Shown: positions 2,357-24,997, counted from the stretch's first letter. The stretch: 64,000 bases of DNA from an uncultured delta proteobacterium (GCA_963712115.1 CAVQGX010000021.1:1-64000); one strand, 5' to 3'. A program made the numbers and translations. The notes: a model not told the origin generated them from the sequence alone.

Positions 2357-2365
2357 GGTTTCCCC

Positions 2366-3592: not shown

Positions 3593-3658
3593 GGGGTTTT
3601 CCTTGTTATGTAGGGTATAGTCTAGGCAGCCACTCACTACAAATGTACGAAGTCAGGT

Positions 3659-3814: not shown

Positions 3815-3898
3815 GACCGCACCTTACTTGAACCTCGGTCTTCGCGTCCGACTTCATCTCCTACGTATTTGTACCCAGAGGGCTCGGCACTTCAATGA

Positions 3899-5116: not shown

Positions 5117-5138
5117 CAGAGTTTCCTTCCAGAAACCG

Positions 5139-5921: not shown

Positions 5922-5938
5922 CTCTCCGCTCTAAATTT

Positions 5939-6035
5939 CGTCATTCCGGAATCCGCCGAAGGCGGATATCCGGAATCCAGAAAGGCATCAAGTTCCTGGA
6001 TACCTGATCTCGACTCCGTCTCTTCCGGTATGACG
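5939..6035. repeat. REP-like palindrome (GTCATTCCG...GGAATCCAG family) with an inserted TCCGCCGAAGGCGGA hairpin
   Basis: CGTCATTCCGGAATCCGCCGAAGGCGGATATCCGGAATCCAG ... CTGGATAC ... CCGGTATGACG. Confidence 0.7.
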
Positions 6036-6069
6036 ATTCTTGAGATGTTTCAGCTTTTTTGGCACTCCT

Positions 6070-8512: not shown

Positions 8513-9307
8513 TCACTGTCGAAAGGCTTGCAAGTAGCTGAGGCAGTGCTCGTCCTTTCCCGCCAATAATTCCGCCGTTTTCACTGCGGCCGCCATTTCT
8601 TCATGCAATATGTCAACAATGGCTGCATCGAGACCTGCGTAGGCAGCCATATGTAGGAAGCCCGCATTCAATCTGGCTCGCCCGGGCAAGCCAAAGGATA
8701 TGTTCGAGATACCCAAAACCGTCCTGCAGCCTGGGAATTCTTTCTTGATCTCGGTTAGGGCGGCCAGGGCTGTCAATCCCTGTTTAACATCTGTACTGAT
8801 GGGCATAACCAGAAGATCAAAGAAGACGTTTTCAATCGGGACTCCGTATCTCTTGCAGGCCTCCACAATTTTTTCGCCGGCCCTAATCCGATCTTTGACA
8901 CTCTCAGGTATGCCTGACGCATCCATGGTTAGAGCCACAAGAGGAGTGTTATATTCTTTTGCCAAAGGGAGCACCTCTTCCAAACTCTTTCGCTCTGCCT
9001 TAGTGGAATTAAGCATGGCAGGTTTGCCTCTGCGGCTTTTCACTCCTGCTGCCAAGACAGCTGGGTTGCTACTGTCTATGCAGAGCGGTGTTTCGAGCTC
9101 ACCCTGAATGGTCTCTACCGCCCATTTCATCGCTTGAATCTCATCTTCAGGCGAACCGACACCAGTGGACACATTGACGTCGATATAGCTGGCTCCGGCG
9201 TCAGCCTGCCCTCTCGCCAAACCCAGGAGACCCTGAGCGTTACGATTAAGGATTATGTCCTTGACGGATGGGATCGTACCGTTGATCCTCTCAGCGATGA
9301 TGATCAT
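8513..9307 (-). CDS. Methyltetrahydrofolate:corrinoid methyltransferase (AcsE-like pterin-binding protein)
   Basis: IIIAERING, YIDVN, LCIDSSNP, GISNISFGLP. Confidence 0.9.
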   Translation of the reverse strand: MIIIAERINGTIPSVKDIILNRNAQGLLGLARGQADAGASYIDVNVSTGVGSPEDEIQAMKWAVETIQGELETPLCIDSSNPAVLAAGVKSRRGKPAMLNSTKAERKSLEEVLPLAKEYNTPLVALTMDASGIPESVKDRIRAGEKIVEACKRYGVPIENVFFDLLVMPISTDVKQGLTALAALTEIKKEFPGCRTVLGISNISFGLPGRARLNAGFLHMAAYAGLDAAIVDILHEEMAAAVKTAELLAGKDEHCLSYLQAFRQ

Positions 9308-9385
9308 GACCGGTTATCTCCTTGACTCAGTTCCAATCTATGACTTACTAAAACGCCGCCGGGGAGGCAGCTTAAGGACCGCTAG

Positions 9386-10045
9386 CTAAATCCTCCTTGC
9401 TTTGCAAGCCCTGTCGTCACAATAGCGACAGGGGTTGTAGGGGGCCGACCCTTGGGGAACTATGCCGAAAACTCCCGAAATGGATTTTATCGGCTGCATA
9501 AGACAGGAATCCAGGAGTTGCACCGTTATATCTTCTGGCTCGAACAAACTGAAAAGCTTCTTTTGCTCCGTAAGGGGCCAGTCACAATAACCGGGACTGA
9601 ATCTCAAGGTCACTGTTCTGCCTTCTCTTTCGCATTCGTTCTTTATGGTCTGTTGGAACTTGTCTACCAAATCTTCAACCGCCACTGATCCCATGGCATC
9701 GAGAATGTAAGCTTCGGAAAGATCATTATTTTGCATAAGAACACCCACCTCTTCTTCTATCCCAGGCCCAAGAGTGCCGATGAAGCAGACTAGCTTTTCA
9801 GCATTCTTCATTACCTCTGACAGGTTCTTGCTTTCGAACTCTATGGCTCCTTTAATGCGTATTACCCCTTCGTCCTTGACCCTGAAGTCTACCATCCTAT
9901 AGTGAATGTCGGGTGTTATGAGGCTATTGAACTTATCCTCCAAAACCCGCAATTTACTCCTTATGGATTTTGGCAGCTCCTGATTTTCCTTGCCTCCGAG
10001 AAGCCTGGCCAGCTTGCTTTCTTCCACCTCTGGATGGATTTTCAT
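9386..10045 (-). CDS. Stand-alone B12-dependent methionine synthase activation-domain protein
   Basis: TLGPGIE, RFSPGYCDW, MQPIKSISG, C-terminal CxxCxxxxC; start at ATG 10045 inferred. Confidence 0.85.
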   Translation of the reverse strand: MKIHPEVEESKLARLLGGKENQELPKSIRSKLRVLEDKFNSLITPDIHYRMVDFRVKDEGVIRIKGAIEFESKNLSEVMKNAEKLVCFIGTLGPGIEEEVGVLMQNNDLSEAYILDAMGSVAVEDLVDKFQQTIKNECEREGRTVTLRFSPGYCDWPLTEQKKLFSLFEPEDITVQLLDSCLMQPIKSISGVFGIVPQGSAPYNPCRYCDDRACKARRI

Positions 10046-10275
10046 GAATTTTTTTTCACCGCTTTGTCGAATCATCCATGGGCTAATAATGCAGGTTAGT
10101 CTAAATTATAACTTTATACTTCAAAGGTGAAAGGGGTGTCCAATTATAAGGGATGAGCAATTCATTACCTCTTCCGACCACAGGTGACTCCGGGCTCATA
10201 TGCGGTTAGAATAAGCAGAATCCTGCGAATCTTTTCCTTTTTCAAACTCTTGCTAGTGCCACTGAGGGGCATAAG

Positions 10276-10993
10276 ATGCTTGAGTTCCTTTATCAACACT
10301 CTGACAAAAATCGGTTACACCCACCCCATTCATCCGCCAGTGACCCACCTTACTGTAGGCATGGTAATAGGAGGTTTTTTATTCGGGATTTTTGCCTGGA
10401 AACTACGCCACCAGGGTCTGGCCAGGACGGCTCACCACTGCATTATTTTGGCTTTACTTGCACTCTTTCCCACAGTCTTGTCGGGTCTAATGGACTGGCA
10501 GCACTACTACGCAGGGGGTTGGCTGTTTGCCATCAAGATGAAGCTTGCCCTGGCAGTTATCCTGTTTATTCTCCTGGTGTTTGCCTTGAGCGCAGGCTAC
10601 AAGGCTGAAACTGTATCCAAGGCCGCTGTGATACTTTATACTGTTTGTTTAGTGAACGTTACAGCCATTGGCTATTTTGGTGGTGAGTTGGTTTTTGGCG
10701 ACAGGACCGCCCGAAAAGAAGTGGAGACGCTGGGAGTTGAGGTTAACGCTGAGCAATTCAATAAGTCCTGTGGTGCATGCCACCCGAATGGGGGTAACAG
10801 CATCAAACCGCACCTGCCACTAAAGGATGCACCACAACTGGTGAATTTTGAAACCTTCCTCTCCTACATCCGCAGCCCCAAAGCTCGCGATGGCTCGCAA
10901 ACTTTAATGCCTTCCTTTTCTCCGGAAAAACTCTCAGACCAACAGGCGAGGGAAGTTTATCAGTACATCGTGAAAGTGCTTGAGAAGAGTTAA
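10276..10993 (+). CDS. DUF2231 membrane domain fused to monoheme cytochrome c (apparent +1 frameshift near 10297)
   Basis: GAGGGG RBS then ATG 10276; removing one base gives MLEFLYQTLTKIGYTHPIHPPVTHLTVG; GYFGGELVFG; CGACH heme motif and distal MP. Confidence 0.8.
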
Positions 10994-10998
10994 AATCT

Positions 10999-11145
10999 CT
11001 GTCCGACAACCCCTTTCCCCTCCTCTGGCGGGAGGGGATAAAGGGGAGGGGGGAATATAGACTAGCTGAAAATACAATTATTTTTTCACCCCCACCCTAA
11101 CCCTCCCCCGTCAAGGGGGAGGGAAATTATAAAGTTCTCAGACAG
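10999..11145. mobile_element. MITE-like element with terminal inverted repeats enclosing CCCTCCCCC..GGGGGAGGG hairpins
   Basis: CTGTCCGACAAC ... GTTCTCAGACAG ends; the internal hairpin family recurs at 28227-28256, 50072-50111 and 51833-51892. Confidence 0.55.
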
Positions 11146-11174
11146 CCTCTAAACTGCCGCTCGATCCTAAGAGA

Positions 11175-11777
11175 TTGGGTACAATGAGAACGAACAACTT
11201 AAAAATGGAAAAAAACCTTACTCTCGATCCCGAGGCCTGGGTAGACGAGCACGGCGATGCGCTCTTTCGCTATGCCTTGTTCCGGATCCATGACGGTCAG
11301 GTAGCTGAGGACCTTGTCCAGGAGACCTTTTTGGCTGCTATCCGGGGCAAGGACAGTTTTGCGGGCCGTTCCTCGGTTAAGACCTGGCTCTTTGGCATCC
11401 TCAAGCACAAGATAATAGATCACATCAGGAAGATAAGCAGAGAGAGGCCGGCGGAAGACATTGAGACCATAGCAGACCTGGCTGACAAGAATTTTAATGA
11501 TCAAGGAGGATGGAAGTACCAACCATCAGAGTGGACCACAAACCCCGGCCTCCTTTTTCAACAACAGGAATTTTGGGAAATCCTTCAAAAATGCTTGTCT
11601 GAGTTGCCGCCACGGCTGAATCAAGCATTCACTTTACGGGAACTCGATGGGCTCAGTGCGGAGGAAGTCCGTAAAATTTTAGGGGTTACCGCGACTAATG
11701 GGGGCGTTATGCTTCACCGAGCCCGCATGGGTTTGAGAAAATGCCTGGAACTAAAATGGTTTGACCGGGAAGAGTAG
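11175..11777 (+). CDS. ECF sigma-70 factor (TIGR02943/Neisseria sigmaE-like); start may be ATG 11205
   Basis: AEDLVQETFLAA, TWLFGILKHKIIDH, LHRARMGLRKCLELKWF. Confidence 0.92.
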   Translation: MGTMRTNNLKMEKNLTLDPEAWVDEHGDALFRYALFRIHDGQVAEDLVQETFLAAIRGKDSFAGRSSVKTWLFGILKHKIIDHIRKISRERPAEDIETIADLADKNFNDQGGWKYQPSEWTTNPGLLFQQQEFWEILQKCLSELPPRLNQAFTLRELDGLSAEEVRKILGVTATNGGVMLHRARMGLRKCLELKWFDREE

Positions 11778-11789
11778 GAAGAGGGAATT

Positions 11790-12053
11790 ATGTACTCTTG
11801 TAAGCAAGCTACTGAGCTAATGTCCCTGTCTCTGGATGGCAAATTGTCTTTATATCAACGTGTAGCTCTGAAGATGCACCTGTTGATGTGCAAACTTTGT
11901 TCACGTTGCTGGAAACAAATCTTGTTTGTCAGGGACGCTGTGCACAAGTGCGCGGAGCGAACTGAGGAGATTGATTTTATGCCCGACCATTCTCTATCTC
12001 CCGAAGCCTGTGAGCGGATAAAAAATGCTCTCAAAAAGGGGAGTCCTCCCTAA
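11790..12053 (+). CDS. Zinc-binding anti-sigma factor (zf-HC2/ZAS)
   Basis: CKQATELMS, HLLMCKLC (HxxxCxxC), directly after the ECF sigma gene. Confidence 0.88.
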   Translation: MYSCKQATELMSLSLDGKLSLYQRVALKMHLLMCKLCSRCWKQILFVRDAVHKCAERTEEIDFMPDHSLSPEACERIKNALKKGSPP

Positions 12054-12150
12054 GAACTGGCCAGTTTCCAAAGCAACCCTCCTCTTAATCTAACCTCCTT
12101 TGGTCTAGCCCGGATATTTCCTCAATCGTCTGCAGACAATGAACTTTTCG

Positions 12151-12197
12151 ATCGCGGCTGACCTTCGACGGGCTCAGGTCGGGGAAAGCAGTTCCCA
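12151..12197. repeat. Composite REP (CTTCGAC.GGCTCAG inside ATCGCGG...GCCGCTCCCA); second copy at 14833-14880
   Basis: ATCGCGGCTGACCTTCGACGGGCTCAGGTCGGGGAAAGCAGTTCCCA versus ATCGCGGTTAACCTTCGACAGGCTCAGGTCGGGAAAAGCCGCTCCCAC. Confidence 0.7.
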
Positions 12198-12592
12198 GAG
12201 GATGAGGCGGACTAATATTTTTTGTGGGATATGTACACTTGACTTGGATTTTGCTCATGCAATATAACATCGAACGAAAGATGGTGATCAACTTCAGCAA
12301 AACTTCGGGACATCCTGCCCATCCAGGGGGGTTGTCATCCCATTCGAGTCCGGTAATACTTTTCTAAACCATAACTACTGCCCTACCCCACGAAGTAGGG
12401 ATTTCCTAATTGTGATCTACTTCCAAGCCGGATCAATAGTATTCCATGGCGTTGATTTCCCTGCAAAAGAAGGAATAGATAGTGTAACTGGCCTAGATGA
12501 AGTTTTTTATATTGGCTCAAGTCCAGATCTGCAAGAAACAGAAGTTCCAGAGAACACTCGTATGGACAATCAAACAGAATGGGGGGTTGGGA

Positions 12593-14612
12593 ATGACTAC
12601 TGAACAAAAGGACTTGGATCTTCTTTGCATCAACACTATTCGCACACTTTCCATGGATGCGGTGCAGAGGGCAAATTCTGGTCACCCGGGGACTCCGATG
12701 GCATTGGCGCCTTTGGCCTATGTGGTATGGACACAGTTTCTCCGGCACAATCCAGGTAATCCCAAATGGTTCAACCGGGACCGCTTTATTCTCTCCTGCG
12801 GTCACGCATCCATGCTTCTCTATGCCATGCTTTATTTGACCGGCTACGATCTTTCCCTGGAGGAGATCAAGAATTTCCGGCAATGGGGAAGCAAGACCCC
12901 GGGCCATCCAGAATACGGGATCACCCCAGGGGTGGAGACCACCACCGGGCCGCTCGGCCAAGGTATTATGAATGCAGTGGGCATGGCCATGGCAGAGGCT
13001 CATCTTGCCAAAGCCTTCAATCGTGACGATCATAAAATCGTCGATCACCACATTTATGCATTTTGCAGTGACGGCGACTTCATGGAGGGAGCTTCACACG
13101 AGGCAGCCTCTCTGGCGGGACACCTTGGACTCAGTAGGCTGATCTGTTTTTATGACGATAACCGAATAAGCATTGAGGGAGCCACCGCCCTGACCTATTC
13201 AGACGATGTAGCTAAACGCTTCGAAGCCTACAACTGGCACGTTCAGAATATTGGTGATAAGGCAAATGATCTGGCAGCCCTGGCAAATGGACTTGTGAAG
13301 GCCAAAGAGGAAAGAGCAAGGCCATCGCTCATAATAGTTCGTTCCCACATCGGTTATGGTTCTCCCAACAGGCAGGACTCCGCCAAGGCCCATGGCGAGC
13401 CATTGGGTGAAGAGGAGGTGAAACTGACCAAGAAGTCCTATGGTTGGCCCGAAGATCAGACTTTCTTGGTGCCCGAAGAAGTGCTGGCCCATATGAACCA
13501 GGCTGTGGGGCGAGGGGAGAGACTGGAGAAAGAGTGGAATGAGAATTTTTCCTCTTACCAGCGGGCTTACCCTGAGCTGGCTGAAAGGTCTCCAAAGGGC
13601 TCTAAAGAGAGATCTTCCGCCTGGGTGGGACGATGACATCCCGAATTTCACCGTGGATGAAGGTCCCATGGCCACTCGGGTGGCATCAGGTAAAGTACTT
13701 ACTAGTTTCGCCGATAAAATCCCTTGGCTTATGGGAGGCAGTGCTGACCTGGCACCGTCTACAAAGACACTGATTGATGACTCAACCTACTTTTCCAAAG
13801 AACACTACGAAAGACGCAACATTGCCTGGGGTGTCCGTGAACATGCCATGGCCGCCTGTTGCTCTGGCATGGCACTCCATGGAGTGATACGTCCCTACGC
13901 GGCCACCTTTTTTATATTTACAGACTACGCCAGACCCGCTATCCGTTTGGCGGCTCTCATGGAATTACCGGTGATTTACGTGATGACCCATGACTCCATC
14001 GGAGTAGGCGAAGATGGTCCAACTCACCAACCAATAGAACATCTAGCTTCATTGCGAGCTATGCCCAACCTTCACGTTATCCGCCCTGCTGATGCCAACG
14101 AAGTTGCTTATGCCTGGCGGGCGGCGGTGGAACGCACTGACGGACCTACCATGTTGGTTCTAACCAGACAAGGGCTACCCATTTACGACCGAGCCCAGAT
14201 GGCTAGTGCCGAGGAACTGTTAAGAGGTGGCTATATTCTTTCGAAGGAAAAGGGTGCGACTCCGGATATAATTCTCATGGCCTCGGGCTCGGAGGTGCAC
14301 CTAATAGTGGAGGCTCAAGAGATCCTGGCCGGTGAGGACATTGATGCCAGGGTGGTGAGCATGCCCTGTTGGGAGCTTTTTTTCGAGCAAGGGCAGGGAT
14401 ATAGAGATGAGGTTCTGTCACCTGCGGTAAAAGCAAGACTGGCAGTGGAAGCGGGTGTGCCTTTGGGCTGGAGCCAGTGGGTGGGGGATGGAGGTGATGT
14501 CATAGGCATCACCAAGTTTGGTGCCAGTGCCCCTGCTAAAGAGAACTTTAAACAATATGGTTTTACCGTAGAGAACGTGGTAAAGAGAGCAAAGAAATTA
14601 ATTGGGAAGTAA
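12593..14612 (+). CDS. tkt: Transketolase (apparent +1 frameshift near 13589)
   Basis: [24 protein letters not shown] in ORF 12497; [26 protein letters not shown] in ORF 13539; frames join at E-R-L-Q. Confidence 0.95.
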
Positions 14613-14892
14613 GAGATCGCATAGCGACAGTAGTCAGCCGGCAGCAAGCAGCTGACAGCGGGCAGATATTACTAGGCACTATGCACTAAGCACCACAAAG
14701 AAGTAATTAGTACTAGTAGCTGAGAGAAACTGAATTTTGATTGCTTTTCTCCTGAATTCTGGATTCTGACTCCTGGCTCCTTACTCTGTGCTCCATGCTC
14801 TATGCTCTATGCGTTTCTCTTAACAACGGACAATCGCGGTTAACCTTCGACAGGCTCAGGTCGGGAAAAGCCGCTCCCACGAGAGATAAGAT

Positions 14893-15357
14893 ATGGTAAA
14901 ACGGGTGGCCCTCGCTGCAGACCATGCTGGATTCGAGCTCAAAGAGAAGATGGCAGCCCATCTGAAGGGGGCAGGATTCGAGGTCATGGATCTGGGCACC
15001 GGTGACCAGGAACCGGTTGATTATCCAGATTTCGCTCTTGCCATAGGTGAAGCTCTGAGGGAAGGAAGAGCTGAGAGGGGCATCCTTATTTGCGGTAGTG
15101 GGGTGGGAGCCTGTGTTGCAGTTAATAAAATAAAAGGCATACGCGCCGGACTCTGCCATGACACCTACTCGGCACATCAGGGTGTTGAACATGACAATAT
15201 CAATGTGCTTTGTCTTGGGGCCCGGGTTATAGGCGAGGAGCTTGCCAAAGAACTGATCACAGCCTTCCTCTCTGCCAAGTTCACAGGCGAGGAAAGACAC
15301 CGACGCAGGTTGGCCAAGATTGAAGAGATTGAGAGCGGATTGACAAGTAAGGCTTAA
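14893..15357 (+). CDS. rpiB: Ribose-5-phosphate isomerase B
   Basis: ADHAG, DYPD, CGSGVG, GARVIG, RHRRRL. Confidence 0.95.
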   Translation: MVKRVALAADHAGFELKEKMAAHLKGAGFEVMDLGTGDQEPVDYPDFALAIGEALREGRAERGILICGSGVGACVAVNKIKGIRAGLCHDTYSAHQGVEHDNINVLCLGARVIGEELAKELITAFLSAKFTGEERHRRRLAKIEEIESGLTSKA

Positions 15358-15557
15358 GGCTCACGGCGCAAGGCTATTTTATTTCGGATTGCGGATTTCG
15401 AAATGCGGATTTGCAGATTTAATTATGCTCTAAGCACGATACTTTGTTCTCCTTGCTCCTGACTCCTGAATTCTGAATGCAGTGGTTTTCTTGTACTTTG
15501 AGCCTTTTACATCTAATGATTACAATTATTGCTGGTTTAGTAAAAACCTCCCAAGGA

Positions 15558-15683
15558 GACGGCACAGTAAAAAGCTCCAGATGCAAGGCGCGCGAATCTT
15601 TAGGAATGAGGCGCACTTATGTGTGCGCCGCAGTGACGAAAGATGAAGCGCAACATCGCAGATGGACTTTTTACGAAGCCGTC
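15558..15683. mobile_element. 126-bp MITE-like element
   Basis: Terminal inverted repeats GACGGCACAGTAAAAAG ... CTTTTTACGAAGCCGTC; internal hairpin GGCGCAC..GTGCGCC. Confidence 0.65.
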
Positions 15684-15722
15684 AACTATTGTGTTTTTAA
15701 TATTCACCATTGAAGGACCTCC

Positions 15723-17300
15723 ATGGTTGAAGACCAAGATAGAGATGAGATGATAAGAGTGCAGGCCAAGGCTCCTTCTATGGATATCTCCCCAGCCGAG
15801 TGCGTAGTGATTGGCCCCCTGGATCCTTGCACCATTGTTATATTCGGAGCATCCGGCGACCTTACCTCCCGAAAGTTAGTTCCCGCTCTTTATAACCTGT
15901 ACCTGAACGATGGATTGCCGAAGCCTTTCATCATCGTTGGAGCCAGTCGTACCACCCTGAGTCACGGCGAATTTAGAGAAAAGTTAAAGACCAGCTATGC
16001 GGCCACGGAGAATTCAGATCTTTCTCGATGGGATGAGTTTGCTGGCAATCTTTACTATAAACCGGTGATCTACGATTCACTAGACTCCTATAAGGAATTG
16101 GCAAAGTTTTTCAGGGAACTGGACGAAGAATACAAGGTAGGCGGAAACAGAGTCTTTGATCTGGCGGTTCCTCCCTCTCTTTATCCGGTTATTGGCGAGA
16201 TGCTCGGAAAGAGCGGGCTTGCTCAGGAAGGTGAAAACGGCAACGGCTGGTCCCGTATCGTGGTGGAAAAGCCATTCGGCCGAGATCTGAAATCAGCAAT
16301 GGAGTTGGACCAAACGCTGCACCGGAGTTTCAGGGAACACCAGATCTTCAGAATCGACCACTATTTGGCTAAAGAGACGGTGCAAAATATATTAATGTTT
16401 CGTTTTGCCAATGCCATTTTCGAACCAATCTGGAATCGCAGCTATATCGCTTATGTGGGAATCATTGCAGCGGAAAAGTTGGGGGTTGAAAACCGAGCCG
16501 GCTATTATGAACAGTCTGGTGTGATAAGAGATATGTTTCAAAACCACATGATGCAGGTTCTGTCCCTCACTGCCATGGAACCGCCCTCCCTTTTCGAAGC
16601 GGAGCGGGTGCGAGAAGAGAAAGCCAAAGTATTCCGGTCTCTTAAACCCCTCGATGGGGGCAAGCATGCAGACAATCTAGTTCTGGGACAATATGGGCCT
16701 GGCATTGTCGATGGGGTAAGGGTTTCCGGATATCGTGGGGAGCCGAGAGTGAACCCTGAGTCTCTCATCCCTACATTCGCTATGATGCGAGTTTTTATTG
16801 ATAATTGGCGATGGAAGGGTGTTCCTTTTTACCTCGTCTCTGGCAAGAGGTTAGCTAGGAAAATAACCCGAATAATAGTCCAGTTCAAGCGAGTACCTCA
16901 TTCCATGTTTCGAAATGTTCTAGGCGAGGAAATCCTTGCCAACCGGCTGGTTTTGGGGATTTATCCGGAAGAGCGCATTACGCTAACTTTTCAAACCAAG
17001 AATCCTGGTGCACGGAACTGTTTGCGACCTGTGACGCTGGACTTCTCTTATGACCAGAACTACAGTGGCCCCACCCTTGAGGCATATGAAAAAGTTCTGT
17101 TGGATTGCATCCAGGGTGATCAGATGCTTTTTTGGAGTAATAATGGGGTGCGGCTAACTTGGTCGTTCCTAACCCCAATATTACAGGAATGTGAGACTTG
17201 TGGTGATCGAGGGGCACGTCTCCACCCATACGACTCGGGAAGTTGGGGACCCGAGGCCGCTCAGAAGTGGATGAAGTTGATAATTGATGAGGATCAGTAG
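15723..17300 (+). CDS. zwf: Glucose-6-phosphate 1-dehydrogenase
   Basis: GASGDL, EKPFG, RIDHYLAKE, RDMFQNH, WRWKGVPF. Confidence 0.96.
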   Translation: MVEDQDRDEMIRVQAKAPSMDISPAECVVIGPLDPCTIVIFGASGDLTSRKLVPALYNLYLNDGLPKPFIIVGASRTTLSHGEFREKLKTSYAATENSDLSRWDEFAGNLYYKPVIYDSLDSYKELAKFFRELDEEYKVGGNRVFDLAVPPSLYPVIGEMLGKSGLAQEGENGNGWSRIVVEKPFGRDLKSAMELDQTLHRSFREHQIFRIDHYLAKETVQNILMFRFANAIFEPIWNRSYIAYVGIIAAEKLGVENRAGYYEQSGVIRDMFQNHMMQVLSLTAMEPPSLFEAERVREEKAKVFRSLKPLDGGKHADNLVLGQYGPGIVDGVRVSGYRGEPRVNPESLIPTFAMMRVFIDNWRWKGVPFYLVSGKRLARKITRIIVQFKRVPHSMFRNVLGEEILANRLVLGIYPEERITLTFQTKNPGARNCLRPVTLDFSYDQNYSGPTLEAYEKVLLDCIQGDQMLFWSNNGVRLTWSFLTPILQECETCGDRGARLHPYDSGSWGPEAAQKWMKLIIDEDQ

Positions 17301-17318
17301 GGTTTTTCCAGGAGGGAT

Positions 17319-17657
17319 GTGATAATGGAGACTTACTATCACCCGCAGGATTTGCCTAAGTTCGAAGAAATTGGTGAGGGAGCTCCTGAGTTGGCAAAGA
17401 AGTTTTTTGAATATTATGCGGCGGTATTTGCCGAGGGTGAACTCACGGAAAGGGAAAAAGCCCTCATCGCCTTGGCTGTAGCCCACACCGTTCAATGCCC
17501 CTATTGTATTGATGCTTACACCCAGGCTTGCCTGGAAAAGGGATCAAATCTGGCCGAAATGACAGAAGCGATTCATGTGGCAACGGCAATCCGGGGAGGG
17601 TCGTCTTTGGTTCACGGTGTGCAGATGAGAAACATTGCTAAGAAAATCTCTTTATGA
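17319..17657 (+). CDS. AhpD/CMD-family peroxidase-like protein (arsenosugar/rSAM-selenodomain associated)
   Basis: TYYHPQDL, REKALIALAVAH, QCPYCID, LVHGVQM. Confidence 0.88.
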   Translation: MIMETYYHPQDLPKFEEIGEGAPELAKKFFEYYAAVFAEGELTEREKALIALAVAHTVQCPYCIDAYTQACLEKGSNLAEMTEAIHVATAIRGGSSLVHGVQMRNIAKKISL

Positions 17658-17723
17658 GGTACTCCTCTATCAGTTTTGAAGCGGATAACTTTTTAATGTT
17701 CAGTTTTTCCACATTTCTTCCAG

Positions 17724-17752
17724 TGTAAGAGACTGGGCTTTGAGGCGACTAA
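17724..17752 (+). promoter_or_regulatory. Candidate ECF-sigma promoter upstream of arsS
   Basis: TGTAAG-N16-CGACTAA; similar CGTAAA-N16-CGACTAA at 11670-11698. Confidence 0.55.
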
Positions 17753-17841
17753 CAAGAAAGTCAGGATGTAGGGAAGGTCGCAGAAATAAGATAACTGCCT
17801 TTTTGCTACAAGCTTCCAAGAAGTAAGAAGAAAGACTTACC

Positions 17842-18852
17842 ATGCAGCACGCGCAACCACTGGATGAAAACTTCAATACCGACAATACTAAAGTACCGGT
17901 GGAACCCATCAGGCAGACCCTGGCCAAGCATGGACTTAGTTTGACCCGGGTGAAGACCACTACCCTCCAGGTCAACGTGGGTTTGCTCTGCAACCAGGCT
18001 TGTCGCCACTGTCATCTCGAGGCAGGTCCAAGCAGCCAAAAACTGATGGACAGGGATACTATGGAGCAGGTGTTGGAGCTGGCCCGGAGGTTCCCTTTCG
18101 AGGCCATCGACATAACCGGCGGTGCGCCTGAGATGAATCCCAACCTGGTGGAGATGATCGAAAGATTCTCAGCCCTAACACCGCGGCTTATGCTCCGCTC
18201 CAACCTTACTGCTTTGGACCATGAAGAGCGGGATCACCTCATTGATCTTTGCAAACAAAATCGAGTTGTTATTGTTGCTTCCTTCCCTTCTCTGAATGAA
18301 GCGCAGACAGAGTCGCAGAGGGGAAAGGGTGTTTTTCAGGGGTCCATTGGTGTTCTCAGGAAACTGAACTCCATGGGGTACGGAAAACCTGGTTCAGGTC
18401 TGGCGCTCAACTTGGTCTCCAATCCCACCGGGGCTTTTCTGCCCTCCTCCCAGGAGCAGCTGGAGAAGAGATTTCGCCAAGTATTGGAAAATAAGTGGGG
18501 AATAGTTTTCAACAATCTCTTCGCCTTCGCTAACGTGCCTTTGGGAAGATTCCGCCATTGGCTCGAAAGGTCTGGCAATTTGGATAAATACCTTCAAAAG
18601 CTGGCCACCAGCTTTAACCCTTGCGCTATTGAGGGGTTGATGTGTCGGTCATTAATATCCGTCTCCTGGGACGGCTATCTCTTTGATTGTGACTTCAATC
18701 AGGCCGCCAATCTCTACCTGGGGGGAAAGAAGACTCATATCTCTGAGTTGAAAGAGTTGCCCGAGCCCGGAGAGCCTATCGCCATCTCATACCACTGCTA
18801 CACCTGCACGGCCGGCTCTGGCTTCACCTGAGGTGGGGCAATCGGCGCCTGA
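17842..18852 (+). CDS. arsS: Arsenosugar biosynthesis radical SAM selenoprotein ArsS (Sec at UGA 18829-18831)
   Basis: LQVNVGLLCNQACRHCH, DITGGAPE, MCRSLISVSWDG, DCDFNQ, HCYTCTAGSGFT-UGA-GGAIGA-stop. Confidence 0.9.
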
Positions 18853-18863
18853 GGGTCAGGGGC
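18845..18863 (+). promoter_or_regulatory. Candidate bacterial SECIS hairpin
   Basis: GC-G-CCTGA-GGG-TCAGG-G-GC, G-rich apical loop about 22 nt after the in-frame UGA. Confidence 0.65.
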
Positions 18864-18913
18864 AATACGGATGAGGCGGAGATCCGGAGAGACGGGGAAA
18901 CGGCGACACAGAT

Positions 18914-19663
18914 GTGAATAAGAAGCCCGAAATAAGATCTTATCCCAGTTTGCCGAAGCTAAGCCTTGCTGCGGCTGAATTCATTGCCGAACTGGCTGAG
19001 GCTTCAATAAAAGAAAGAAATATCTTCACCCTGGTCCTCTCGGGTGGTAGTACTCCCCTTTTGCTTTATGAGGAGCTGGCACGCCAACCCCTTTCCAAGA
19101 GGATAGACTGGCAGAAGACCCATATTTTTTGGGGTGATGAGCGTTGCGTGCCGCCGGATCATCCGGACAGCAACTATGCGTTGGCTTTTCAAGCAGTTGT
19201 CTCCAAGGTGGATATACCAACAGCGAATGTGCATCGAGTTATTACTGAAAGCGACTCCGCCAATGCTGCTGCGGAAGATTACGAAAAGACCCTCCGTCAT
19301 TTTTTTCGCCATCTTGCAGGGAGTGAAGACCAGCCGTACCTCCCCTCTTTTGACTTGGTCCTGCTGGGTTTGGGACAAGATGGTCACACTGCCTCTCTTT
19401 TCCCCGGAGATGCGGCCCTGGAAGAAAAATACCGCTGGGTTGTGGCAGTGGATGGTGCGAGCGCTTCGCCCCCTGTCCCGCGGGTCACCCTTACTTTTCC
19501 TGTTTTGAACAAGGCCGAGTGCGTTATTTTCCTTGTTTCGGGATCGAGCAAACAAGATGTTTTTGCGGAAATTATGAACAATCCCGGAACAGCAGCCTAT
19601 CCGGCGGCCAGAATAAGACCGTCAGGAAGGCTGTTGTGGTTTATTGATGAGTGGTTGGTGTGA
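18914..19663 (+). CDS. pgl: 6-phosphogluconolactonase
   Basis: LSGGSTP, WGDERCVP, GLGQDGHTASLFP, RVTLT. Confidence 0.95.
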   Translation: MNKKPEIRSYPSLPKLSLAAAEFIAELAEASIKERNIFTLVLSGGSTPLLLYEELARQPLSKRIDWQKTHIFWGDERCVPPDHPDSNYALAFQAVVSKVDIPTANVHRVITESDSANAAAEDYEKTLRHFFRHLAGSEDQPYLPSFDLVLLGLGQDGHTASLFPGDAALEEKYRWVVAVDGASASPPVPRVTLTFPVLNKAECVIFLVSGSSKQDVFAEIMNNPGTAAYPAARIRPSGRLLWFIDEWLV

Positions 19664-20991
19664 GCAGGGTAAACTCCTCTGAGCGACTAATTCTTTTCAC
19701 CCGGTATCCCGAACCGGGGAAAACCAAAACCCGCCTGATTCCAGTTCTGGGCTCCCATGGAGCCGCTGATCTCCAGAAGCAAATGACAGAACACGTCCTA
19801 GCTCGGACAGGCGGTTTCGTCGGCGACCGACGGGTTGATATGGAGGTTCGCCATGAAGGTGGCAACCGAGGACTTATGGAAAAGTGGCTTGGCAGCCATA
19901 TCTCTTATCGATCCCAAGGTCGCGGGGATGTCGGCACCCGCATGGCGAAAGCCTTTTCGCAGGCTTTTAATCAGGGAAAAAAGCGGGTGGTAATCGTGGG
20001 TTCTGATTGCCCAGGGATAAATGAAGAAACTGTAAGAACCGCCTTTGATTTGCTTGATCAGTTTGATCTGGTACTGGGGCCGGCCAATGACGGCGGCTAC
20101 TACTTGATTGGCCTCCGTCAAGAAAAGCCCCAGTTATTTGAGGATGTTCCATGGGGTACGGCCGAGGTGGGAGCCAGAACCCTTGAAATCGCCATTCAGC
20201 TAGGACTTCGCTGGGTAAAAGTTGAACCGCTGGATGATGTGGACCGAGCAGAGGATATTGAGGTATGGGAAAGTGAAGCCACCAGGAAAGAGGCTACACC
20301 TCAGCCTGCAATTTCCATCGTTATTCCAACCCTGAACGAGGCAGAAAACCTGGCTGCGACTCTGGCCAGTACGGAGAGCAGTGTGGATCTTGAGATTGTC
20401 GTTGTGGATGGTGGTAGCAGCGATGAGACTCTCGAAGTAGCGAAGAGTTTTGGGGTGCGGTTGCTCACTACAGCTGCTGGTCGCGCAAGGCAGGTGAATG
20501 CAGGCGGTCTCGCTGCCAGGGGTGATGTACTCTTTTTTCTCCACGGAGACACCCTGTTGCCCCGGGGATTCGAAAGATATGTCCAGGATATTATGGGAAA
20601 ACCAGGTGTGGTGGCGGGTGCTTTTACCCTAGGTATCCATGGTTCGGAGTTCGGTTTTAGAATGGTTGAAATGCTGGCCAATTTTCGCTCCCGTGTCTTG
20701 CAAATGCCTTATGGCGACCAAGGAATCTTTCTCAGGAGAGAGGTTTTTCGTGCCCTGGGAGGGTTTCCTGATATGGTTCTCATGGAGGACTTTGTATTAA
20801 TGCAGCGGTTAAGAAAAAGGGGGAGAGTTGCGATTGCGCCCGTTGCTGTAAAGACTTCAGCTCGACGCTGGCGTGAACTCGGAATCTTGAAAACAACCCT
20901 GATAAATCAAGTTGTTTTGCTGGCCTATTTCCTTGGCAGTAATCCTCAGCGGCTGGCACGCTGGTACGGAAGGTCCAAATTTAAAAATTGA
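19660..20991 (+). CDS. Fused glycosyltransferase: TIGR04282-type (CofC-like) N-domain plus TIGR04283-type GT2 C-domain
   Basis: FTRYPEPGKTKTRL, GSDCP, GPANDGGYYLIG, DVD; then SIVIPTLNE, VDGGSSD, PYGDQG, MEDF, TSARRW; GTG overlaps the pgl stop (GTGA). Confidence 0.9.
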   Translation: MSRVNSSERLILFTRYPEPGKTKTRLIPVLGSHGAADLQKQMTEHVLARTGGFVGDRRVDMEVRHEGGNRGLMEKWLGSHISYRSQGRGDVGTRMAKAFSQAFNQGKKRVVIVGSDCPGINEETVRTAFDLLDQFDLVLGPANDGGYYLIGLRQEKPQLFEDVPWGTAEVGARTLEIAIQLGLRWVKVEPLDDVDRAEDIEVWESEATRKEATPQPAISIVIPTLNEAENLAATLASTESSVDLEIVVVDGGSSDETLEVAKSFGVRLLTTAAGRARQVNAGGLAARGDVLFFLHGDTLLPRGFERYVQDIMGKPGVVAGAFTLGIHGSEFGFRMVEMLANFRSRVLQMPYGDQGIFLRREVFRALGGFPDMVLMEDFVLMQRLRKRGRVAIAPVAVKTSARRWRELGILKTTLINQVVLLAYFLGSNPQRLARWYGRSKFKN

Positions 20992-21125
20992 GGAATTCAG
21001 GTATTAAGGAAATTAGCGAATCTATAAATTTGAACTAGCCATCAAGAATACTTGAATCCCCAAATTTCTGAATCGTTTTGCTCGAGGACTTGCATTGTCA
21101 ATAGGGATGGGCTATTGTAAAGTGT

Positions 21126-21143
21126 TTGAGAGAAGATTCACAA
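21126..21143. promoter_or_regulatory. Rex-like operator
   Basis: TTGAGAG-AAGA-TTCACAA, 2 mismatches to TTGTGAA-N4-TTCACAA. Confidence 0.4.
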
Positions 21144-21189
21144 TGATGACGTCATAGAGGAATTGCTACTGAAACCCTGAGGATCAAGC

Positions 21190-21909
21190 ATGGAAGGCAA
21201 GTTGAAAGAATTCAGCCGTGGGGAACTGGCCCAGTTTAATGGTGAAGATGGAAAGCCGGTTTATATCGCCTACGAGGGCAAGGTTTACGATGCTTCTGAA
21301 AGCAAATTATGGAAGACAGGGTTCCACATGCGGAGGCACCAGGCGGGAGCAGATCTGAGTGAAGAGATCGGAGGCGCTCCCCATGGCCTCGAGGTTTTGA
21401 AAAGACTTCCGCAAGTTGGCACTTTAAAGGCGGAAAAAGATCCCATGGATGAGCACATTCCTGAGCTTCTTCTGGCGGTCTTTCGTAAAATTCCCATGTT
21501 GAGGCGCCACCCCCACCCCATGACTGTACATTTTCCCATTGCCTTTATGATGCTCTTTCCGGTTTTAAACATTCTTTACCTGGCAACTGGTAAGGAAAGT
21601 TTTGATATCTCCTCATTTCATGTGCTCGTTGCTGGTCTTGCTTTCACACCTGTAGCACTGCTCACGGGGCCATACAACTGGTGGATCAATTACGCGGGCA
21701 AGTGGTCAAAAATAATCGCGGTTAAGATGTTCGGTTCTCTTATCCTGATCACTCTGATTCTGGTCATTTTCATGTGGAGAATATTGGTACCCGATATTAT
21801 GTTGCAGCCAAGCGGGGCCAGGATTATTTACATTATGCTCAGCCTCATACTACCGCCGATAGTATCAGTCCTCGGATGGTTTGGAGCCAAGATGACCTTC
21901 CCCCACTGA
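21190..21909 (+). CDS. Cytochrome b5-like heme/steroid-binding domain fused to DUF2231 membrane domain
   Basis: ELAQFNG, YIAYEGKVYD, HQAGADLS, PHG; HPHPMTVHFPIA followed by about four TM helices. Confidence 0.85.
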   Translation: MEGKLKEFSRGELAQFNGEDGKPVYIAYEGKVYDASESKLWKTGFHMRRHQAGADLSEEIGGAPHGLEVLKRLPQVGTLKAEKDPMDEHIPELLLAVFRKIPMLRRHPHPMTVHFPIAFMMLFPVLNILYLATGKESFDISSFHVLVAGLAFTPVALLTGPYNWWINYAGKWSKIIAVKMFGSLILITLILVIFMWRILVPDIMLQPSGARIIYIMLSLILPPIVSVLGWFGAKMTFPH

Positions 21910-22027
21910 GGTTTGAGGTGTCAGGTGTCAGGTTTCAGAAATGATAGACCTGAACACTGACACCTGAAACCTGAAACCTTAAACTTTGGTGTTTGGAATT
22001 TGATATTTTACAATGCTCCATTGCTCG
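21908..22027. repeat. Heptamer inverted-repeat element (GGTGTCA/CTGAAAC family), copy 1
   Basis: (GTGTCAG)n-AAATGATAGAC-(CTGAAAC/CTGACAC)n plus a TTTGGTGTTTGG tail; relatives at 28027, 44448 and 61681. Confidence 0.85.
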
Positions 22028-22094
22028 CCGGAGGCCGGGCCTGGATTCTTTGCTTTCTCAGGAAACCTAAGAGAGGGATGAAGACAAGATCAGT

Positions 22095-23033
22095 ATGAGT
22101 TTGCAATCCACAGTCAAACCAGAACAGTTGAAGCTTTTCCTGGCTCTCTCCCGAACTCCCCATTTGTTAATTGATCTCGCAACCCCAATGGCAGCAGCGC
22201 TCTTGTGTATCGGGAGATTCCCAGCCATTTCCACGATCATACTCGGACTAATAACCGTTTTCGCTGGATACGCTTGCATCTACGCCCTCAATGATGTGAC
22301 CGATTATGAATTGGATAGGAAAAGGATGGGAGAACTCCCCAGAGAACAAGCCTGCTTTGATCTCGACTGCATTTTTGTTCGCCACCCTCTAGCACAAGGG
22401 TTCATAACTTTTGCTGGGGGCATGGTGTGGACCGCCCTGTGGGGACTTATTGCTCTGGTTGGGGCTGCGCTTTTAAATCCAGTTTGTGCCGCCATTTTCA
22501 TAGTTGGTGCCATACTCGAAGTGATTTACTGCAAGTTCTATGGTTATAGCCAGTGGAAAATCCTTATCGCCGCCACGGTAAAAAATCTCGGCAGCTTGGC
22601 TGCCATCTACGCAGTAAACCCAGATCCACCGCTCGAGTTCATAGTTATAGTTTTCATCTGGATTGCACTCTGGGAAGTCGGGGGACAAAACATCCCCAAC
22701 GATCTAGTGGACATGGGTGAAGACAGAAGACTAGGGGGTAAGACCGTTCCCGTGGTTTATGGGCCGAACCTTTCGATATTCATCATTTTTATTACACTCA
22801 TTGCCAGTTTTGTCCTGGGTCTTGGTCTGGTATTTCTCTCCCCCCTTGCCTTTAAGGGGGTGTACATAGTAGGTGCGATTATTTCCGGACTTTTATTTCT
22901 CTTGCTTCCCCTCAGAAGATTCCTAGCAGGGAAGGACACCACCAAAGCAATAAATCTCTTTAACCAAGCTAGCCTTTATCCCGTGGGGATATTCATTACC
23001 ACCGTCTTTTGTATTTTGATCCAGTATATATAA
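22095..23033 (+). CDS. UbiA-family prenyltransferase
   Basis: NDVTDYELD and NDLVDMGED Asp-rich motifs, RHPL, multiple TM helices. Confidence 0.88.
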   Translation: MSLQSTVKPEQLKLFLALSRTPHLLIDLATPMAAALLCIGRFPAISTIILGLITVFAGYACIYALNDVTDYELDRKRMGELPREQACFDLDCIFVRHPLAQGFITFAGGMVWTALWGLIALVGAALLNPVCAAIFIVGAILEVIYCKFYGYSQWKILIAATVKNLGSLAAIYAVNPDPPLEFIVIVFIWIALWEVGGQNIPNDLVDMGEDRRLGGKTVPVVYGPNLSIFIIFITLIASFVLGLGLVFLSPLAFKGVYIVGAIISGLLFLLLPLRRFLAGKDTTKAINLFNQASLYPVGIFITTVFCILIQYI

Positions 23034-23080
23034 TCCTTACAAGACGCGCCCTCCCTTGAGAAAAAGATAGTTAGACTTCC

Positions 23081-23181
23081 TTGGAGTAGTGGAGCGTTGG
23101 AGTACCGGAGTAATGGAAAATCTACGATTTCTGACTTTGTAAATCTTTTCGATGCCCAACACTCCAATACTCCATTACTCC
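23081..23181. repeat. Octamer inverted-repeat element (TGGAGTAN ... NTACTCCA)
   Basis: TGGAGTAGTGGAGCGTTGGAGTACCGGAGTAATGG ... CCAACACTCCAATACTCCATTACTCC. Confidence 0.75.
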
Positions 23182-23347
23182 CAAAACCGCGCAAACAGGA
23201 AAAACCTCGAATAAAGTTTGTCGGGTTCATGACCCTGACTCTTTGGCCCAACAATCCGTCATTTCGATGTAATAGTTAAAATACCAACGCCGACGATTCA
23301 ACGTAGAGGTTTCTGCTGGATGTTGACACTTAATCTAGGAGTGAGAA

Positions 23348-24997
23348 ATGAATTTCGACAACTTCCTGGCCAACATCTACTTTGGCTCTTTGGATGTGGA
23401 ACGATTCCATTCCTTTAGAGATCTGGAGGAAGATGATAAAACCAGAGAAATAATTGAAAAGTATGAGAAAATCACCGAGAAATATCCCTCCTCCCATCTC
23501 GAAGAGAAAGAAACCGTCCCGGCAGAACTGCTGGAGGAGCTGAAGAGGATTGGCTTCTTTGGACTGAATATACCGGAAGAATACGGCGGAGTTGGGCTAA
23601 ATCTCAAACAATACTTGAAGGTAGTGGAAGAGATAGCCGGTCGTGATCTGGCTCTAGCAATCATTTCCCTGGCTCATCTTTCCATTGGTTGCAAAGGCAT
23701 TGTGCTCTTTGGCACTGAAGCGCAGAAGGAGAAATACCTCGTCCCTGCCGCCACTGGCGAGATGATTTTTTCCTACGCACTCACTGAACCGAAAATAGGC
23801 TCGGATGCCAAGCACATTGAAACGTGGGCCAAGCTTTCTGACGATGGCAGCTACTACATTTTAAACGGTCAGAAGACATACATAACCAATGCAAACTATG
23901 CCGGAGGACTCACAGTCTTCGCCCAGCTAGATAGGGACAAGCCAGGTTTCATTGGTGGTTTAATAGTAGAGACCGCATGGGATGGAGTAAAGATAGGTAG
24001 AGACATGCCGAAGATGGGACTCAAGGCAAGTTCTACTGCAGCCATTCAATTCAAAGATGTTCGCGTTCCAAAAGAAAATCTCCTGGGTCAACCCGGAGAT
24101 GGGTTCAAGATCGCCATGACTATTTTAAACTACGGTAGAGTCGCTCTGGGAGCTGGTTCGGCTGGTGCGCTGATTCAGTCAAGGCGTGACATGGTGAAAC
24201 AATCTGGCCGCAGAATCCAGTTCGGAGTTCCCATCAATACTTTTGAACTGATCCAGGAAAAAATGGTTAAGGCCAAAGTTGACGGCTACCTGACCTCAGC
24301 CATTACCGCTTTTACGGCAGGATTGCTCGAGAATGACCCTCTTGCGGCTGTTGCCATTGAGAGCTCCCACTGCAAACTCTTCGGCACCACCAGGGCCTGG
24401 GATACCATTTATAATGGACTGCAAGTGGCCGGAGGTTCTGGATACCTGGCCACGCAGCCCTATGAGAAAAGAATGAGGGATTTTAGGGTAACTACCATCT
24501 TTGAGGGGACCACTGAGATCCATTCCATCTATCCGCCCCTGTTTGTTTTGAGAAATCTCGAGAAGGAAATGAGAGCAGCGAACCGCTCCACCACCTCTAG
24601 GCTGATATTTCTGCTTAAAGGCATATTTGCTAGAGCTAAGTGGAAGCTCAGGTTTAGTCACAGAGGTATGAACCGGGCGGTTAGACTTGCCAAAGCCAAC
24701 GCCAGGTCCATACGGTGGTTGCTTCACGCCGGACTGTTGATTTATGGAAAAAAAATCCAGAAGAAGCAGTTTTTTCTCCGCCGCCTAACCAATCTTAGTC
24801 TCTACCTCTTCGGGATCATTTCAGTATTGGCAAAAATAGATGCAGAGCAGAAAATGGGACGAGACGTCTCTGCGGGTCTGAAGGTCCTAGCCTATATTGT
24901 GGAGGAGGCGCTCCAGGTGAGGAAGGATAACAAACGTTTACTCAGCTCCAAGCAGGAAGCTCTGCACAAAAAGATTTTCCAGGATATTGTCTCCTAG
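23348..24997 (+). CDS. Acyl-CoA dehydrogenase (ACAD9/VLCAD-like, extended C-terminus)
   Basis: IPEEYGG, YALTEPKIGSD, KMGLKASST, RDFRVTTIFEGTTEI. Confidence 0.92.
   Translation: MNFDNFLANIYFGSLDVERFHSFRDLEEDDKTREIIEKYEKITEKYPSSHLEEKETVPAELLEELKRIGFFGLNIPEEYGGVGLNLKQYLKVVEEIAGRDLALAIISLAHLSIGCKGIVLFGTEAQKEKYLVPAATGEMIFSYALTEPKIGSDAKHIETWAKLSDDGSYYILNGQKTYITNANYAGGLTVFAQLDRDKPGFIGGLIVETAWDGVKIGRDMPKMGLKASSTAAIQFKDVRVPKENLLGQPGDGFKIAMTILNYGRVALGAGSAGALIQSRRDMVKQSGRRIQFGVPINTFELIQEKMVKAKVDGYLTSAITAFTAGLLENDPLAAVAIESSHCKLFGTTRAWDTIYNGLQVAGGSGYLATQPYEKRMRDFRVTTIFEGTTEIHSIYPPLFVLRNLEKEMRAANRSTTSRLIFLLKGIFARAKWKLRFSHRGMNRAVRLAKANARSIRWLLHAGLLIYGKKIQKKQFFLRRLTNLSLYLFGIISVLAKIDAEQKMGRDVSAGLKVLAYIVEEALQVRKDNKRLLSSKQEALHKKIFQDIVS

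Follow-up and report, generated by a model that had tools for sequence, protein, structure and literature searches.

What brings genes of the oxidative pentose-phosphate pathway into one run with an enzyme of the ArsS family? The question is raised by a 64,000-nucleotide stretch of DNA from an uncultured delta proteobacterium, a sediment anaerobe (GCA_963712115.1, CAVQGX010000021.1:1-64000; the window hereafter), in which tkt, rpiB, zwf, an AhpD-like gene, arsS, pgl and a TIGR04282/TIGR04283 fusion gene follow one another on the + strand (12593-20991). A survey of related genomes showed that the linkage of ArsS with zwf exceeds chance. We suggest, with about as much doubt as confidence, that the oxidative genes fuel a relay in which reducing power passes from NADPH through a disulfide reductase, termed PNDR here, and the AhpD-like CxxC protein to the cysteine and selenocysteine (Sec) thiols and selenol of ArsS.

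The gene run

The open reading frame listing and family scans bore out the seven genes of the original prediction, including the separation of zwf from pgl by the AhpD-like gene and arsS. All of them except the frame-split tkt exceed the curated cut-off of their family. The first, tkt (12593-14612), codes for transketolase in two frames (TIGR00232, 470 + 426 bits, model positions 3-321 and 321-653), and rpiB (14893-15357) codes for ribose-5-phosphate isomerase B (NF004051, 198 bits, cut-off 135). Glucose-6-phosphate dehydrogenase is encoded by zwf (15723-17300; TIGR00871, 576 bits, cut-off 401) and 6-phosphogluconolactonase by pgl (18914-19663; TIGR01198, 232 bits, cut-off 124), each the sole copy found in the genome. 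Between them lie the AhpD-like CxxC gene (17319 or 17325 to 17657; TIGR04169, cut-off 120) and the gene for the ArsS-family radical S-adenosylmethionine (SAM) selenoprotein (17842-18852; TIGR04167, 395 bits, cut-off 300, model positions 2-303 of 303). The run ends with a fusion gene (19651 or 19660 to 20991) that matches TIGR04282 over residues 13-203 and TIGR04283 over residues 221-439; by Pfam it combines DUF2064 with Glycos_transf_2, that is, a CofC-like nucleotidyltransferase fold with a family 2 glycosyltransferase. The three partner families TIGR04169, TIGR04282 and TIGR04283 therefore adjoin ArsS at 193, 212 and 254 bits, each over its cut-off.

The genes are closely spaced. An 18-bp gap between zwf and the AhpD-like gene had been predicted, and this distance holds for the GTG at 17319; the ATG at 17325, with a gap of 24 bp, is the likelier start because AGGAGG lies at 17310-17315. 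The predicted overlap of pgl with the glycosyltransferase gene was present as GTGA at 19660-19663, where the pgl stop overlaps a possible start of that gene.

Linkage of ArsS with zwf in related genomes

The phylum was sampled with 401 genomes. All 149 ArsS loci listed in them, or 150 with the window itself, were mapped by tblastn with the proteins of the window. These locus counts are lower bounds, owing to short contigs and single-query tblastn. Outside the sample, a pattern scan derived from the ArsS alignment gave 80 named loci, 24 of Desulfobacterota type and 56 from other phyla. ArsS was found in 145 of the 401 genomes, zwf in 140 and both in 86, so that 86 of the 145 ArsS genomes carry zwf (odds ratio 5.5, a descriptive figure). 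In 15 of the 150 loci, belonging to 11 families, zwf lies within 6 kb of ArsS. Random placement in genomes of about 4 Mb would give well under one such case among the 86 genomes with both genes, and 15 were observed. The original prediction had allowed that the arrangement might be unique to this genome; the neighborhood survey showed instead that it recurs in those 11 families. Beyond the sample, zwf is linked in 3 of the 24 Desulfobacterota-type loci (L166, L172, L183) and stands beside ArsS in none of the 56 loci of other phyla.

The neighborhood of ArsS has a graded composition. Within the same 6 kb, the AhpD-like gene was found in 79 of the 150 loci, TIGR04283 in 53, TIGR04282 in 46 and a VTT/DedA-type membrane protein in 45, followed by PNDR (28), pgl (13), DUF547 (12), gnd (10) and arsM (1). 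The non-oxidative genes are rarer at this distance (tktN 3, tktC 5, rpiB 2, tal-pgi 3), and at 10 kb the counts are 6 for tkt, 4 for rpiB and 3 for tal-pgi versus 15 for zwf, 13 for pgl and 10 for gnd.

The linkage spans at least six gene orders and both the Sec and the Cys subtype of ArsS. The order zwf-AhpD-ArsS-pgl-glycosyltransferase of the window is repeated in L015 and L018, the core zwf-AhpD-ArsS-pgl is also found in L183, and a further 14 loci have the genes in other permutations. Among these orders are zwf-AhpD-ArsS (L019, L020, L023), ArsS-zwf-pgl-tkt (L016), ArsS-tkt-rpiB-zwf-pgl-glycosyltransferase (L021) and, with further genes intervening, zwf-pgl-...-AhpD-ArsS-glycosyltransferase (L022) and AhpD-ArsS-...-zwf-pgl (L017, L024), while the ArsS and zwf genes of L026-L028 are convergent pairs. 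A FastTree phylogeny was built from 230 ArsS sequences. On it the linked state, seen in 18 of the 133 loci with enough flanking sequence, required at least 13 changes, against a mean of 17.1 and a minimum of 13 in shuffles; the linkage was therefore gained or lost many times.

A disulfide reductase near zwf

PNDR is a class-I flavoprotein disulfide reductase whose best matches (NF004991, Lpd and MerA) are all below cut-off, including 356 bits against the Lpd family TIGR01350. It carries the redox motif GGDCLH[YF]GC, and all 23 homologues that are at least 45% identical share its C-terminal ...LKGRAC tail. When the linked loci were scanned with Pfam and NCBIfam, PNDR proved to recur near zwf and ArsS along with a short-type gnd, tal or tal-pgi, VTT and DUF547; PNDR, VTT and DUF547 stood out among these. 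Two loci (L172, L023) have the order PNDR-gnd-zwf-AhpD-ArsS-VTT, and L183 has VTT-PNDR-zwf-AhpD-ArsS-pgl-glycosyltransferase; in L166-L169, L176 and L186, PNDR-AhpD-ArsS stand together with no pentose-phosphate genes between them. Geobacter sp. OR-1 (L209) has VTT-AhpD-ArsS. PNDR with its CxxxxC motif thus adjoins the gene for the AhpD-fold CxxC protein in these other loci, which is a pairing of the Lpd-AhpD type.

The PNDR subfamily was detected in 75 of the 401 genomes, together with zwf in 52 of the 75 (odds ratio 6.1) and with ArsS in 45 (odds ratio 3.4). A manual comparison of coordinates gave at least 15 genomes in which no more than 7 kb separates PNDR from zwf; five of these 15 have ArsS alongside, five have it elsewhere in the genome, and in five no ArsS was found. 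The pentose-phosphate genes are therefore linked at least as much to PNDR as to ArsS.

In the genome of the window (4.9 Mb in 70 contigs, 94% complete), DUF547, PNDR, gnd and VTT form a tight cluster on the minus strand of another contig (C31:136997-141000). We know of no functional description of this cluster with DUF547 and PNDR. Its DUF547 protein has a CxxxxC motif (NCASKSC). The short-type gnd (C31:137808-138729) matches NF007161 in two frames with 309 + 138 bits and, with zwf and pgl of the window, completes the oxidative pentose-phosphate set of the genome. The absence of arsM and gnd noted in the original prediction is therefore correct for the window; the genome search found both.

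A glucokinase and a glucoside hydrolase adjoin the cluster in a few loci (L025, L166, L020, L024) and may feed glucose-6-phosphate. In L166, a Desulfobacterales chromosome, sucA-sucB-lpd (974-6688) lie directly upstream of PNDR-AhpD-ArsS, and past pgl there are, at 16914-19787, a fusion of a glutaredoxin-like with a glucosylglycerate-hydrolase-like domain, and a ROK kinase. L020 and L024 have related glycoside hydrolases, a possible route from a stored glucoside to glucose-6-phosphate.

ArsM and the meaning of the arsenosugar label

According to a published study, ArsS cleaves SAM and adenosylates dimethylarsenite, DMAs(III), to 5'-deoxy-5'-dimethylarsinoyladenosine (PMC13598754). The ArsS/ArsM pair of Synechocystis is mentioned in two further reports (PMC8552651, which cites Xue et al. 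2019; bioRxiv 10.1101/2024.02.01.577332). In the genome of the window, arsM lies on the same contig, 82 kb downstream of ArsS (C21:100573-101386, minus strand), and is read in two frames (206 + 121 bits, cut-off 263). It adjoins a small AhpD/CMD-like CxxC protein with weak matches to MduS and to an ArsM/AhpD selenoprotein. This pairing, together with the ArsM/AhpD fusion families included in NCBIfam, indicates that AhpD-type domains recur with arsenic enzymes. Besides arsM and the AhpD/CMD-like protein, the segment C21:97422-101386 encodes a second extracytoplasmic function (ECF) sigma factor and one more protein with a CMD domain.

ArsM exceeded its cut-off in 113 of the 401 genomes, a count that includes the frame-broken copy of the window's genome, and was present in 43 of the 145 ArsS genomes (odds ratio 1.1, p 0.64). 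No arsM stood beside ArsS in the 24 Desulfobacterota-type loci outside the sample, compared with 18 of the 56 loci from other phyla, which comprise Bacteroidota, Nitrospirota, Binatia, Acidobacteriota and others. An ArsM-like methyltransferase often flanks ArsS directly in Bacteroidota, Nitrospirota and Binatia, and one Nitrospirales locus (L219) has the order pgl-arsM-ArsS. The arsenic context of the ArsS family is thus visible in other phyla, and in this one another context takes its place. The arsenosugar label under which the cluster had been predicted is weakened by the missing co-occurrence with ArsM and by the single locus in 150 with arsM beside ArsS, and for the cassette in this phylum the label is uncertain.

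Selenocysteine in ArsS

The predicted selenium dependence of ArsS was upheld. An in-frame TGA at 18829-18831 encodes Sec, the true stop is the TGA at 18850-18852, and the protein ends in ...CTAGSGFTUGGAIGA. The Sec residue, U330, is aligned with an invariant Cys in the ArsS alignment (A1), many ArsS homologues are also read with one TGA, and the genome has the Sec machinery (selB 395 bits, selD 382 bits). On these sequence features, we identify the ArsS of the window as a selenoprotein. The Sec form of the family is already tabulated in two selenoproteome reviews (PMC13188914, PMC9312934).

The protein has CxxxCxxC at residues 50-57 (C50, C54, C57) and a C-terminal Cys-rich DUF3641 domain. C268, C283, C319 and C322 are conserved, and the C-terminal cysteines are invariant or nearly so. 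There are two ArsS subtypes: a Sec type (GSGFTU) with an AhpD partner, and a Cys type (GSGSSC), about 40% identical, without it. The nearest relative among the 80 named loci belongs to a metagenome-assembled genome of Syntrophobacteria (76% identity). Of 142 AhpD-like neighbors of ArsS, 141 retain the CPYC motif. A complex prediction for ArsS with the AhpD-like protein, run on 329 residues of ArsS without the Sec tail and on alignments of 45 rows, scored 0.28 against a mark of 0.32, which speaks neither for nor against contact. A search of PDB sequences with ArsS returned distant radical SAM cores only and no ArsS structure.

A small hairpin past the Sec codon (18845-18863, + strand) is a candidate Sec insertion sequence (SECIS); in the fold test it was no better than shuffles (z-score -0.67). 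Rfam gave no match at E <= 1 over 10900-21300, and so neither a riboswitch nor a SECIS model.

Transcription and possible regulation

Among public sequencing runs, 14 from metagenomes of marine sediment, estuaries and mangroves hold at least half of the sampled words of the stretch, and six runs recorded as RNA contain part of it. Three RNA libraries yielded contigs that cover the genes and span four junctions: zwf/AhpD (run X17, 16661-17462), AhpD/ArsS (X16, with a variant spacer), ArsS/pgl (X17, 18598-19089) and pgl/glycosyltransferase (X15, 19429-19732). This bridging is a weak hint of a shared transcript.

Just upstream of the run there are genes for an ECF sigma factor of the TIGR02943 family (11175-11777, + strand; NCBIfam, 177 bits, cut-off 162) and its paired zinc-finger, ZAS-type anti-sigma factor (11790-12053, + strand; NF052368, 57.5 bits, cut-off 50), which also has a weak RsrA match. 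Homologues of the sigma factor with 48-49% identity occur near the ArsS/zwf loci L025, L027 and L028, and it is possible that the sigma factor regulates the cluster. A scan for ECF-type promoter motifs upstream of tkt, rpiB, zwf and ArsS gave none in common. A 47-nt element upstream of tkt and rpiB was considered as a specific regulatory site and rejected, being part of a repeat dispersed over the genome.

An NADPH-fed relay and other readings of the cluster

In the reading that we favor, the locus joins the known ArsS cassette (the AhpD-like protein, ArsS and the TIGR04282/TIGR04283 transferases) to the only oxidative pentose-phosphate genes of the cell. The products of zwf, pgl and the gnd on C31 would act as a dedicated generator of NADPH, which PNDR would take up and use to keep the CPYC dithiol of the AhpD-like protein reduced. 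The AhpD-like protein in turn might maintain the reduced state of the C-terminal Cys/Sec centre of ArsS, or of a trivalent metalloid substrate or product. ArsS would join the 5'-deoxyadenosyl group of SAM to the metalloid, and the transferases and the VTT/DedA membrane protein may process or export the product. In this scheme the gene identities, the Sec codon, the motifs, the recurrent linkage and the co-occurrence are observed, and we infer the direction of electron flow, the protein contacts, the substrate and the co-regulation. Three observations argue for a supply of reductant rather than of sugar: ArsS more often has the oxidative genes nearby than tkt, rpiB or tal, the oxidative genes are inserted between PNDR and the AhpD-like gene, and the linkage of PNDR with zwf extends to genomes in which no ArsS was found.

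Several points weigh against this relay. The ArsS step on DMAs(III) is reportedly redox-neutral and does not need NADH (PMC13598754), so any demand for reductant must come from elsewhere than the radical step, and the model is weakest on where NADPH would be spent. A preference of zwf, gnd and PNDR for this cofactor is presumed, and PNDR of this genome is on contig C31 and not in the window. Coupling of ArsS with zwf is optional: it is confined to 15 of the 86 genomes that carry both, and zwf was not seen in 59 of the 145 ArsS genomes in the sample search. Related genomes are not independent, so that the odds ratios overstate the associations and serve as descriptive figures only. At the level of transcription, contigs from RNA libraries can neither prove a single transcript nor exclude carry-over of DNA, and a promoter and terminator scan of 10900-23400 gave counts no higher than shuffles and did not reveal the boundaries of an operon.

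The original prediction had left room for a second role of the pathway, the supply of sugar phosphates for making a conjugate or the recycling of its sugar. In such a role, ribose-5-phosphate or 6-phosphogluconate would be built into the conjugate by the TIGR04282 and TIGR04283 domains, or would be recovered from it. The presence of tkt and rpiB in the window, L016, L021, L024 and L025 fits such a role, as does the position of pgl directly before the glycosyltransferase gene in five loci (the window, L015, L018, L021 and L183). Moreover, TIGR04282 resembles CofC, an enzyme that activates a phospho-acid, and 6-phosphogluconate may be the nearest analogue at the level of the substrate. However, the 10-kb counts favor the oxidative over the non-oxidative genes, and zwf is linked to PNDR also without a nearby ArsS or glycosyltransferase gene. 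Since gnd recurs in the clusters, 6-phosphogluconate appears to be consumed in the ordinary way. In addition, the product of ArsS takes its ribose from SAM, as part of the 5'-deoxyadenosyl group (PMC13598754), which goes against sugar phosphates as the origin of this ribose. A role in sugar supply is thus highly doubtful. The predicted integration of the oxidative pathway with the ArsS genes stands as regards a conserved unit and a supply of NADPH that fits the linkage, while the supply or recycling of sugar phosphates found no support.

Alternatively, the pentose-phosphate genes, PNDR, DUF547, VTT and the ArsS cassette could be members of a stress island or regulon, controlled together with no direct biochemical hand-off among them. 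In this reading, which we think unlikely, if far from negligible, they would be separate accessory defenses of anaerobes against thiol, oxidative or metalloid stress, controlled for example by the sigma and anti-sigma pair at 11175-12053. The place of that pair just upstream, its homologues near three other linked loci, the patchy linkage with variable gene orders and the admixture of unrelated redox genes (nitroreductase, AhpC-like, rhodanese) are all consistent with co-control, and zwf belongs to oxidative-stress regulons in other bacteria. This reading accounts less well for the tight coupling, with a zwf-AhpD gap of 18-24 bp and the pgl/glycosyltransferase overlap, and for the repeated insertion of the oxidative genes exactly between PNDR and the AhpD-like gene. 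No more than 7 of the 150 loci have the ECF sigma factor inside 10 kb of ArsS, and the scans upstream of the four genes gave no shared promoter motif. A further possibility concerns the substrate: the ArsS of Desulfobacterota might act on a soft nucleophile other than the dimethylarsenite made by ArsM, for example inorganic arsenite, thio-arsenite or some selenium or sulfur compound, in an undescribed NADPH-driven conjugation. The lack of co-occurrence of ArsS with ArsM in the phylum and the rarity of arsM beside ArsS, set against the 18 of 56 loci in other phyla, point in this direction, as does the difference between the Sec-type C-terminus GSGFTU and the Cys-type GSGSSC. On the other hand, ArsS matches the TIGR04167 equivalog well above its cut-off and keeps all conserved cysteines, the genome does have an arsM, methylated arsenic can be acquired from the surrounding community, and the alternative substrates are without positive evidence. 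A change of substrate seems quite unlikely. The combined form, a self-fuelled NADPH-driven system of Sec-type ArsS, the AhpD-like protein, PNDR, DUF547, VTT and the oxidative pathway that is independent of ArsM and adenosylates one of these other substrates instead of DMAs(III), is in our view unlikely.

Comparison with described systems

The ArsS of the window shares the TIGR04167 family, CxxxCxxC and DUF3641 with the ArsM-ArsS pathway of Synechocystis sp. PCC 6803, and its genome contains an arsM, read there in two frames. It differs in being a selenoprotein and in its place between zwf and pgl; its arsM is distant rather than adjacent, and ArsS does not track ArsM across the phylum. The same four families, TIGR04167, TIGR04169, TIGR04282 and TIGR04283, make up the rSAM/selenodomain cassette of NCBIfam/TIGRFAMs, which NCBI names 'arsenosugar biosynthesis(-associated)' and whose usual order is the AhpD-like gene, ArsS and the transferases. 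In the window, this cassette is split by pgl and preceded by tkt, rpiB and zwf, and its relatives further add PNDR, gnd, DUF547 and VTT.

The mycobacterial Lpd-DlaT(SucB)-AhpD-AhpC system is an NADH-dependent peroxidase relay. Its common traits with the proposed relay, present here as genes only, are an Lpd-related disulfide reductase, an AhpD-fold CxxC protein and a Cys/Sec acceptor. The module described here has no lipoyl carrier or peroxiredoxin, apart from the sucAB-lpd genes upstream in L166 alone; PNDR has its own GRAC tail, and the proposed acceptor is a radical SAM enzyme. As a supplier of NADPH, zwf is part of stress regulons such as SoxRS in E. coli. The likeness lies in a genetic coupling of an NADPH-yielding dehydrogenase to redox defense. 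In contrast to SoxRS, the coupling here takes the form of an operon that includes a specific set of reductase and metalloid enzymes, and it occurs in anaerobes, among which zwf was seen in only 140 of the 401 genomes.

Assembly and surroundings of the cluster

The frame change in tkt lies at an AAA run (13584-13586) with one extra A. One base, at 13584 or 13589, is missing in public contigs of one DNA run (X1) and of two RNA-library runs (X15, X17). The depth of the one-base-shorter form was 31.3 of 31.3 in X1, 9.5 of 18 in X15, and 2.86 (13584) and 6.06 (13589) of 8.91 in X17. Since these contigs lack one base and its deletion merges the two frames, an indel of the assembly is the likeliest cause of the split of tkt. 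Like tkt, the gnd and arsM genes are intact except that each is read in two frames, and the assembly probably has homopolymer indels; apparent pseudogenes in this genome thus need caution.

The spacers on both sides of rpiB (14613-14892 and 15358-15722) are copies of a short dispersed intergenic repeat, which is also present at 12151-12197. The repeat flanking rpiB had 201 blastn matches across the genome, with very high depth and many alternative joints in the metagenome contigs. Its 23-nt core occurs twice in the window.

DUF2231 membrane proteins are encoded on both sides of the cluster, as a cytochrome c fusion at 10184-10993 and as a cytochrome b5-like fusion at 21190-21909, and the latter is followed by a UbiA-family prenyltransferase gene (22095-23033). 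The two DUF2231 genes and the UbiA gene were dropped as parts of the system, each being near ArsS in 1 of the 150 loci. Two genes on the minus strand (8513-10075), unrelated to the finding, code for a methyltetrahydrofolate:corrinoid methyltransferase (NF005719, 287 bits) and, adjoining it, a protein with a B12-dependent methionine synthase activation domain.

Significance for the ArsS family and its hosts

The core ArsS cassette is already catalogued. Its embedding in an operon of the oxidative pentose-phosphate pathway was found in no paper: our search, in which coverage of the literature was incomplete, gave none that tied ArsS to zwf, pgl or the pentose-phosphate pathway, and within the same incomplete coverage none described the attachment of PNDR, DUF547 and VTT or the missing co-occurrence with ArsM. 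The cassette is annotated everywhere as 'arsenosugar biosynthesis' from one cyanobacterial system. In this phylum it tracks zwf and PNDR rather than ArsM, with NADPH genes spliced in, which suggests an electron relay of thiols and selenols. Counts of ArsS in metagenomes should accordingly not be read as arsenosugar production. If true, the ArsM-independent reading would represent an undescribed pathway of metalloid conjugation with its own generator of reductant. PNDR, the AhpD-like protein, DUF547 and VTT are candidates for supporting steps in the synthesis of organoarsenicals in sediments, and the finding offers an explanation for the retention of the oxidative pentose-phosphate branch in some relatives of the sulfate reducers.

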